From Eledone cirrhosa (Eukaryota): a DNA stretch of 64,000 bases. The position numbers were made by a program, and so were the translations under genes. The stretch lies in NCBI GenBank assembly GCA_964016885.1, contig OZ024761.1, positions 26,846,001 to 26,910,000 on the forward strand, in the 5' to 3' direction. Every line of letters begins with the position of its first letter. Within the stretch, counting starts at the first letter, position 1. The notes below the pieces were generated by a model, which was given only the letters and a program-made list of their open reading frames with translations, was not told the origin of the DNA and searched no databases. Shown piece after piece: positions 24,839 through 25,186 of the stretch.

Positions 24839-24897
<59 letters not shown>

Positions 24898-25186
24898 AAC
24901 GAGTAGGACCCCGACGGCTGAGCTCAAGCCGTTTCGACGGCTAATATGTCCAGAATTAGCCGTCGAAACGGCTTGAGCTCAGCCGTCGGGGTCCTACTCG
25001 TTCCTATTACCCACTCTACTACCCTAGGTATTGAGTACTTTGGTGCGTTATGGTCCACCTGGTTCCTTACCACATTTCCTTCGTTATATATATATATAAA
25101 TGTACGTATGTTTTTTCTATGTGTATAAATTCTTGTTTTGCAGCAAATTGGCATAGACTCTAGAACGTCAGATAAATGCTTTGTGA

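Follow-up and report, generated by a model that had tools for sequence, protein, structure and literature searches.

A probable Penelope-like element derivative of Eledone cirrhosa with half a hammerhead ribozyme and a conserved tail hairpin

A repeat at positions 24896-25084 of a 64,000-nucleotide (nt) stretch of Eledone cirrhosa DNA (the stretch analyzed, called the window herein) carries half a hammerhead ribozyme and lies between two (TA)n runs, which raises the questions of what kind of element it is, how its copies entered (TA)n, and which part of its RNA a copying protein might recognize. An initial annotation had assigned it to a family of about 11 copies (family B) and had proposed an RNA design shared with an otherwise dissimilar hammerhead family (family A), insertion with an inversion near the ribozyme, and the motif TATTGAGTAC as a candidate signal for a reverse transcriptase (RT) or endonuclease. 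The focal copy consists, in order, of (TA)n, a 50-nt inverted arm, 2 filler bases, a 137-nt direct arm, and (TA)n, with the following parts.

24842..24895, no strand: left (TA)n target run (sequence)
24896..24945, minus strand: inverted arm, which repeats direct-arm positions 24955-25004 and stops at terminus 1 next to the TA run (alignment)
24946..24947, no strand: 2-nt filler of the head-to-head joint (sequence)
24948..25084, plus strand: family B direct arm, pLTR remnant plus tail (BLAST copies, reads)
24965..24987, plus strand: 3′ half of a type I hammerhead, with GAAA, a 6-bp stem III, a palindromic loop, and GUC
24988..24993, plus strand: GGGGTC, putative 3′ strand of stem I (reads, copies)
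25004..25007, plus strand: terminus 1, the pLTR end and putative first RT start site (arm ends, reads)
25008..25084, plus strand: 77-nt tail, ending at terminus 2 (25084) (copies, reads)
25013..25038, plus strand: conserved bulged hairpin ACTC-TAC-(loop)-GTA-TT-GAGT, then AC; contains TATTGAGTAC (25029-25038)
25085..25098, no strand: right (TA)n target run (sequence)

The inverted arm of this copy ends at the pLTR end, between TTCC and TAT. Stem III is formed by ACGGCT and AGCCGT around TGAGCTC, with GAAA at 24965 and GTC ending at 24987, just as the initial annotation described it. From the C of GTC it is 97 nt to the (TA)n run starting at 25085, within the 90 to 100 nt given before, and 41 nt to TATTGAGTAC at 25029. 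The spacing of this motif had been put at about 43 nt in family B and about 40 nt in the hammerhead family; the two values are indeed similar, with the counts corrected to 41 nt in B and to 38 nt in A, measured there from GUA. The two fixed ends of family B, 25007 and 25084, are 77 nt apart.

BLAST searches of the 64-kb window returned 11 family B clusters, in agreement with the earlier estimate, and TA runs flank all 11 copies on both sides. Besides the focal copy these are as follows.

8772..8973, plus strand: copy with both arms reaching the fold centre
24623..24724, minus strand: diverged copy
25910..26084, plus strand: two arms, both tail-ended
26445..26555, plus strand: single arm, tail-ended
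32503..32641, plus strand: arms joined over a short common CTGG
38037..38193, minus strand: faces a family A copy head-to-head, with one TA run between them
41696..41747, minus strand: single arm, pLTR-ended
50659..50775, minus strand: subfamily B2
52183..52374, minus strand: subfamily B2, with the farthest 5′ extent in the window, lacking CUGANGA
53917..54110, plus strand: family B copy

Nine of the 11 copies are two-armed, with an inverted 5′-truncated arm joined to a direct pLTR, and two are single arms. A pLTR-ended arm is paired with a tail-ended arm in eight copies, and two tail-ended arms are paired in one; terminus 1 is thus represented by an arm ending there beside a tail-ended arm in 8 of 11 copies, plus one single arm. 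Within the two-armed copies one arm extends to 24948-24957, while the end of the other ranges from the fold centre to 25036, so the joint does not lie at one fixed point. These counts correct the earlier statement that an inversion at about one point replaces CUGANGA in each copy. Several other repeats were observed near family B copies: the copy at 8772 sits in a TA run between tandem 80-nt units (8617-8703 and 9076-9154), Tc1/mariner-like MITEs with CAGGGTGTC-type ends lie beside B copies at 24742-24841, 54134-54257, and 63090-63180, and about six tandem SINE-like repeats of 70 to 80 nt with a GAGTTCAAATCC box occupy 25180-25650.

Read evidence came from four of the 21 public runs listed, none of which was an RNA run, the main set being 23,225 raw reads from one organism (organism A). 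Both ends of family B recur in these 23,225 reads, of which 3,542 pass from 25007 into (TA)n; a further 1,264 reads of subfamily B2 pass into (TA)n near 25007, and 17,993 contigs of another run also match the family B stretch. In each of the 14 opposite-strand joints listed, one side falls at 24947-24960 and its partner at 24984-25046. In run X19, a RAD library, 7,182 molecules end at 24954, which likely reflects a restriction cut of the library and not an element end.

Family B copies look palindromic and sit in TA, with true Tc1-like MITEs adjoining, which could point to an ordinary MITE that targets TA and is bounded by terminal inverted repeats. The ends of B, however, are different positions of one sequence, and its relatives carry hammerheads and RT ORFs. 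Since the ends are unequal in eight of the nine two-armed copies and the centre varies between copies, we consider the MITE reading refuted and give it next to no probability; the terminal inverted repeats of DNA transposons, named in the initial annotation as grounds against its proposal, were not found in B. Penelope-like elements (PLEs) are known for just this layout, in which an inverted pLTR plus tail gives head-to-head arms with two fixed ends, and family B is very probably a PLE derivative.

Further PLE-like copies in the window were assigned to three other families.

37764..37970, plus strand: family A copy with a complete hammerhead at 37836-37888 (CTGATGAT...TGAAAC) and the hairpin at 37909-37929
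35418..35610, plus strand: family A copy with the hairpin at 35548-35568
31995..32193, minus strand: family A copy, hairpin with one change
35633..36224, plus strand: family D copy with 240-nt arms and a complete minimal hammerhead near 36032-36100
47880..48010, minus strand: single copy of family C, TACAC/GTGTA inner stem plus TATTGAGTAC, with the outer 5′ strand unpaired

Families A and D have a canonical hammerhead near the 3′ end. In family A, stem I is formed by GAGATTC and GAATCTC and stem III by ACAG and CTGT; this pairing makes GUA (37879-37881) the cleavage triplet, not the GUC of loop III. The 5′ edge of stem I coincides exactly with the start of all three family A copies (35474-35482, 37836-37842, and 32118-32125), and between subfamilies stem I covaries with its partner strand. 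The copy at 37764 also carries an apparent piece of an older fold centre. The family D copy at 35633..36224 folds back about 170 nt upstream of its own hammerhead and has the hairpin at 36143-36169, with compensated inner pairs; a second family D arm at 59429-59584 has a complete minimal hammerhead, stops at end 1, and has no tail. Tails measure about 70 to 90 nt in A and D, compared with the 77 nt in B.

Other features of the window were recorded alongside. A TA-flanked element at 31451-31916 has inverted arms of 193 nt and a tail of about 38 nt but no hairpin, and it likely belongs to a different PLE clade. A TA-flanked 77-nt piece with TAGAGCAC at 20119-20195 (minus strand) may be the truncated tail of another family, and a family with GGGGAGGGTCATAT ends is arranged tail-to-tail around a TA run (31151-31432 and 41823-41930). 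The segments 28949-29596, 36326-36772, and 58706-59179, for which Pfam was weak or silent, we take to be RTE-like and L1/Tx1-like LINE ORF fragments. The window also contains a single-exon rhodopsin-family GPCR (22854-23834), with 81% identity to an Octopus sinensis protein and 69% to one of Argonauta, and a homeobox exon (46879-47451).

The next question is whether the half hammerhead of family B is a relic or part of a longer parent. CTGANGA was found in none of the 11 copies nor within 60 nt around them, as the initial annotation had observed for the copies, and two features of canonical type I hammerheads, CUGANGA and the 5′ strand of stem I, are absent from B. Neither CTGANGA nor GACCCC occurs in the 5′ overhangs listed from the four public runs. 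Overhangs 5′ of 24948 end in AATTTA, with AAAAATTCTAATTTA there in two other organisms; further out, their agreement falls (0.45 in two large runs). The subfamily B2 overhang (1,592 reads, agreement 0.76) matches the copy at 52183. A strand able to close stem II is entered by about 34 reads, against about 2,700 at 24948-24953 (about 1% or fewer). Because the full-length B predicted by the initial annotation, with CUGANGA and a GACCCC strand, was seen neither in copies nor in the overhangs listed, B is better read as a derivative that has lost half its ribozyme than as a family with a full-length hammerhead.

The remaining half fits a relic in two respects: the GAAAC of B lies 61 nt before the motif, within the 54 to 79 nt of complete hammerheads, and GGGGTC (24988-24993) is steady in the read table and copies beside a spacer (24994-25000) that differs between subfamilies. 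By this spacing GAAAC occupies the hammerhead position, and the proposal of one RNA design shared by A and B is supported as well. The predicted fold of B buries GAAA in a competing hairpin, and no two-sided (compensatory) change in stem III was seen in the reads. The hammerhead half of B is likely a dead, inactive relic. A tandem of about seven partial family A units at 61960-62435 (minus strand), each running from the 3′ part of stem II to the first strand of the hairpin and lacking CTGATGA, is another example of units that multiplied although the 5′ half of the ribozyme is missing. Four further candidates were tried and rejected: an HDV-like ribozyme at the 5′ end of B lacks a partner strand, a second hammerhead half upstream in B has the wrong spacing, Pol III A and B boxes are broken in B2, and ORFs in the tails of B or A have early stops.

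Two alternatives would leave B with a working ribozyme. The first, which is the version of the initial annotation, holds that a full-length B has an intact hammerhead and is inserted by a mechanism that inverts at the ribozyme. It would account for the arm reaching 24947-24960 in 14 of 14 opposite-strand joints among those listed and for the three family A copies that begin at stem I. However, the fold of the family D copy lies about 170 nt upstream of the hammerhead, and that of a metagenome locus, L011 (described below), lies inside its own ORF, which argues that the ribozyme does not determine where the fold occurs; inverted 5′-truncated arms are, moreover, a described trait of all PLEs (PMC8557442). 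The few reads at 24948 that could close stem II, the lack of CTGANGA in the overhangs listed, and the piece of an older fold centre in the copy at 37764, as inherited masters predict, also speak against this mechanism, which we regard as improbable.

The second alternative is that the hammerhead of B is split and completed by splicing, with an upstream exon supplying GACCCC, CUGANGA, and the stem II strand. TTCTAAT followed by TTAG, resembling a branch point and an acceptor, stands just 5′ of the conserved part in both subfamilies (overhangs and copy 52183), but in B1 the two words are a few bases apart, which is too close for the usual intron end. No upstream exon or RNA read was seen, and stem III of B shows no compensatory change. 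An intron of Drosophila virilis Penelope does end at helix I and alters the ribozyme (PMC4209133); for family B, splicing nevertheless seems very unlikely.

If the half ribozyme of B is a relic, the conserved part of its tail deserves attention. TATTGAGTAC has 11 exact matches in the 64-kb window (8 in family B, 2 in A, and 1 in C) against 0.50 expected, and none of 100 shuffles reached 11. As judged from predicted pairing, it does not stand alone as a 10-mer but forms the 3′ side of a hairpin with a bulge, RCTC-(stem-loop)-TW-GAGY-RC. The hairpin reads ACTC-TAC-loop-GTA-TT-GAGT-AC in B, ACTC-TGC-loop-GTA-TT-GAGT-AC in A, and ACTC-CAG-loop-CTG-TA-GAGT-GC in D. A strict scan for it found 10 sites in 64 kb, all within the tails of A, B, and D. 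The hairpin starts 2 to 11 nt after end 1 and lies 27 to 55 nt before end 2.

MAFFT alignment did not register the hairpin across families, and pairs were therefore counted by anchoring and on a 6-row subset. Over 13 sequences, 87 of 91 cells are paired (7 of the 13 were chosen for a perfect hairpin, and several are related), and compensatory changes occur at four of the seven pairs: pair 1 (AU/GC), pair 5 (UA/CG), and pairs 6 and 7 (CG/GC). CTC/GAG and the following RC are invariant in these sequences, and the loop varies from 3 to 9 nt. In the 6-row subset, whose rows were preselected, 7 of 500 shuffles reached the observed score. A covariance model built from six non-octopus loci, without any octopus sequence, ranked seven B tails first in the window (E of about 0.001), followed by 19875 (E = 0.013), family A (0.026 and 0.11), and, weakly, family D (2.4). 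The match at 19875-19904 is a lone imperfect hairpin with no hammerhead at the usual distance and may be an old tail. In isolation the hairpin is weak, at about −4 to −9 kcal/mol, and the B tail has a z score of 0.5; Rfam returned only low-complexity miRNA noise from the window and nothing from eight hammerhead loci. In all, we think it highly probable that the hairpin is a real conserved fold.

The same conservation might instead reflect a DNA site that a GIY-YIG endonuclease reads as a sequence or imperfect inverted repeat, and not as an RNA fold. Work cited in PMC11167929 found that the endonuclease needed the D. virilis tail to recognize DNA; the CTC/GAG and RC positions do not vary, and a second group of hammerheads (below) keeps TWGAGYRC without the fold. 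Against a DNA site, insertions target plain (TA)n and not the motif; moreover, a single-strand hairpin suits the data better than a double-strand site because both partners of the inner pairs are exchanged and loop length ranges from 3 to 9 nt. We consider the DNA-site reading unlikely, to a degree close to that of inversion at the ribozyme.

For an independent view of the hairpin, metagenomes were scanned for a hammerhead core plus TWGAGYRC, with the 5′ strand left free, which gave at least 121 matches at at least 120 loci. Among the matches listed, at least 37 fold as hammerheads by a relaxed rule. Eighteen of these form a second, putatively 'insect-type' group (including L005, L012, L031, L033, L046, L049, L051, L052, L057, and L058), and none of the 18 has the hairpin. 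Of the other 19 hammerheads listed, 7 have a perfect hairpin and 10 have one with at most one mismatch, compared with 1 (L055) and 5, respectively, of the 84 nonhammerhead matches listed (P = 7e-6 for 10/19 versus 5/84, or 0.002 with the second group included; several loci are related). Two of the five nonhammerhead matches, L055 and L032, are PLE-like themselves, L055 having an inverted arm. The 18 second-group loci listed keep TTGAGTGC and then ATTAGTYGG and AATAAA at the same distance, and since they carry TWGAGYRC without the hairpin, the letters may matter more than the fold; the letters of the motif may be common more widely among PLE tails.

Several of these loci connect the hairpin to Hydra-type ORFs. 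L011 contains, in order, an inverted RT piece, an endonuclease end that bears the motifs CxCX5C, CxxC, and CxH, a stop, a hammerhead, and the hairpin core, and its relatives encode proteins of about 700 amino acids with RWK on contigs of about 2.5 kb. The CxCX5C, CxxC, and CxH motifs are those of the Hydra clade (PMC8557442). L011 and its relatives have the hairpin in common and show the features of an autonomous Hydra-clade ORF (RT plus C-terminal GIY-YIG, with RWK, DKT, CxCX5C, CxxC, and CxH); the clade of L011 was judged from motifs and 279 relatives, and Pfam detected no RT or GIY-YIG family in its ORFs. L039, L077, and L102 have the same Hydra-type endonuclease end upstream of the hairpin. 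In L100, a hammerhead, the hairpin, a second hairpin, and the start of a Hydra-type ORF follow one another, placing two hairpins in the leader (236-327, minus strand). This order implies that the tail is the leader of the next unit, and in a tandem the 77-nt tail of B is at the same time the 5′ leader of the unit that follows.

This dual position allows for the alternative that B is a Hydra-type PLE derivative in which the hairpin acts in the 5′ leader, as an internal promoter or a translation or splicing signal, and stands in the tail only incidentally. The two hairpins of L100 lie just before the ORF start, the Hydra-1_Ajap consensus has the hairpin at its 5′ start, and leaders of Penelope and Chlamys elements contain promoters and introns (PMC8557442). 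Family B, however, has no ORF and keeps the paired positions nearly fixed: among the read positions listed, 1 of 14 paired positions varies, along with two in the loop and one in the bulge. The distances of the hairpin to both element ends are likewise constrained. A leader function seems unlikely to us, although less so than any of the other alternatives.

The window itself contains no Hydra ORF remnant by tblastn and HMM searches and thus no autonomous single ORF, and no autonomous parent of B was found; the assignment of B to a clade therefore rests on the hairpin and on its neighbours A and D. Only the hairpin links B to the Hydra-type ORFs of other organisms, and B-specific patterns had no matches in metagenome, viral, and prokaryote collections. 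Our preferred reading, to which we assign a probability of roughly 0.6, is that B is a short, nonautonomous derivative of Hydra-clade PLEs, that an RT/GIY-YIG protein of a partner element copies it into (TA)n, and that the tail hairpin is the docking signal of that protein. A role of the motif as an RT or endonuclease signal, suggested from the start, is plausible, and for the hairpin as the docking site of such a protein we lean slightly in favor.

Under this preferred reading, for which the work on Poseidon of the anole serves as the model, the partner Hydra protein would bind the tail hairpin on uncleaved RNA and nick both strands of the TA run. One cDNA would start on one strand at end 1, just before the hairpin, and the other on the opposite strand at end 2, about 46 nt after it, and the two 5′-truncated cDNAs would join head to head through short common bases or filler. 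The recurring fold point near 24948 would be inherited from truncated masters that already lacked CUGANGA: once a master has folded at one place, its daughters cannot reach further, which would explain the shared limit. With such masters, the hammerhead half would be a dead relic and the hairpin would be what B needs. It is conceivable, at somewhat below even odds, that the hairpin is conserved throughout the clade, in cnidarians as in echinoderms, crustaceans, and octopods, as the element on which Hydra Penelope RTs dock, and that it sets both RT start sites and makes the tail; B would then be a SINE-like parasite stripped nearly to the hairpin, for which the ribozyme is dispensable and the hairpin is not.

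Penelope-like RTs are the closest relatives of telomerase RT. In vitro work on how they recognize RNA and why they start at two internal sites has covered a single PLE protein, with the binding element narrowed only to a stretch of 150 nt. A covarying hairpin of 26 nt, tied to both ends and present in several animal phyla, offers an exact target for mutation and compensatory rescue. It also provides a means to spot and classify the numerous Hydra-type repeats of invertebrate genomes that encode no protein; in Octopus vulgaris, PLEs account for 6.8% of the genome (PMC13282606, supplement).

Family B can be compared with four known systems and probably represents a new and abundant derivative, with a crippled ribozyme, of a PLE clade that is known, as is the element layout; as a repeat, B may already be listed in Repbase, Dfam, or the O. 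vulgaris repeat library. Hydra-clade PLEs (2021, PMC8557442), including Hydra-1_Obim of Octopus bimaculoides, target (TA)n as B does, and, like the families of the window, they have an inverted 5′-truncated arm plus a direct arm and tail, with a hammerhead near the 3′ end. The family A core, CTGATGAT...TGAAAC with ACAG/CTGT-A, agrees with the Hydra rows of File S2 (PMC8557442). In contrast, B has no ORF, no 5′ half of the hammerhead, and a stem III longer than in any Hydra row of that file, and it does not match Hydra-1_Obim by eye. A tail beyond the pLTR end is optional in PLEs and described as 30 to 40 bp (PMC8557442), shorter than the 70 to 90 nt in B, A, and D. Naiad was rejected as the clade of B, as Naiad elements lack canonical hammerheads. 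In the part of File S7 covered here and by eye, the hairpin is perfect in three of the six published Hydra consensuses, standing behind the hammerheads in Hydra-2_Amil and Hydra-2_Ajap and at the 5′ start in Hydra-1_Ajap, and it has one mismatch in Hydra-1_Crog; it is not seen in Hydra-1_Amil and Hydra-1_Obim, both with consensuses that break off about 40 nt beyond the cut site. The covarying tail hairpin appears to be undescribed so far: the available sections of PMC8557442 and PMC4209133 do not mention it, nor does the largely open-access literature searched, although a stem-loop in Poseidon_Ac (PAc) of the green anole may be comparable.

PAc (Frangieh et al. 2024, PMC11167929) resembles B in that two fixed ends bound the tail, the target is AT-rich, both strands are used, and copies extend upstream of the ribozyme cut site. 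Two RT start sites delimit its tail, cutting and extension take place on both DNA strands, and mutation of the hammerhead does not prevent insertion in vitro. Unlike B, PAc belongs to another clade, its tail lies inside the ORF start, and RT starts in an AC-rich stem-loop. Non-LTR retrozymes (Cervera and de la Peña 2020; Li et al. 2026, preprint) are, like B, nonautonomous, PLE derived, hammerhead related, and short. Their units follow one another head to tail in tandem, and every unit has a complete hammerhead; this arrangement was not found in B copies, which are dispersed and head-to-head with half a hammerhead. Nonautonomous Chlamys elements such as MRC1 (PMC8557442) differ from B in clade and kingdom, in their (CA)n targets, and in their head-to-tail copies; like B, they are short PLE derivatives that have kept their 3′ ends.
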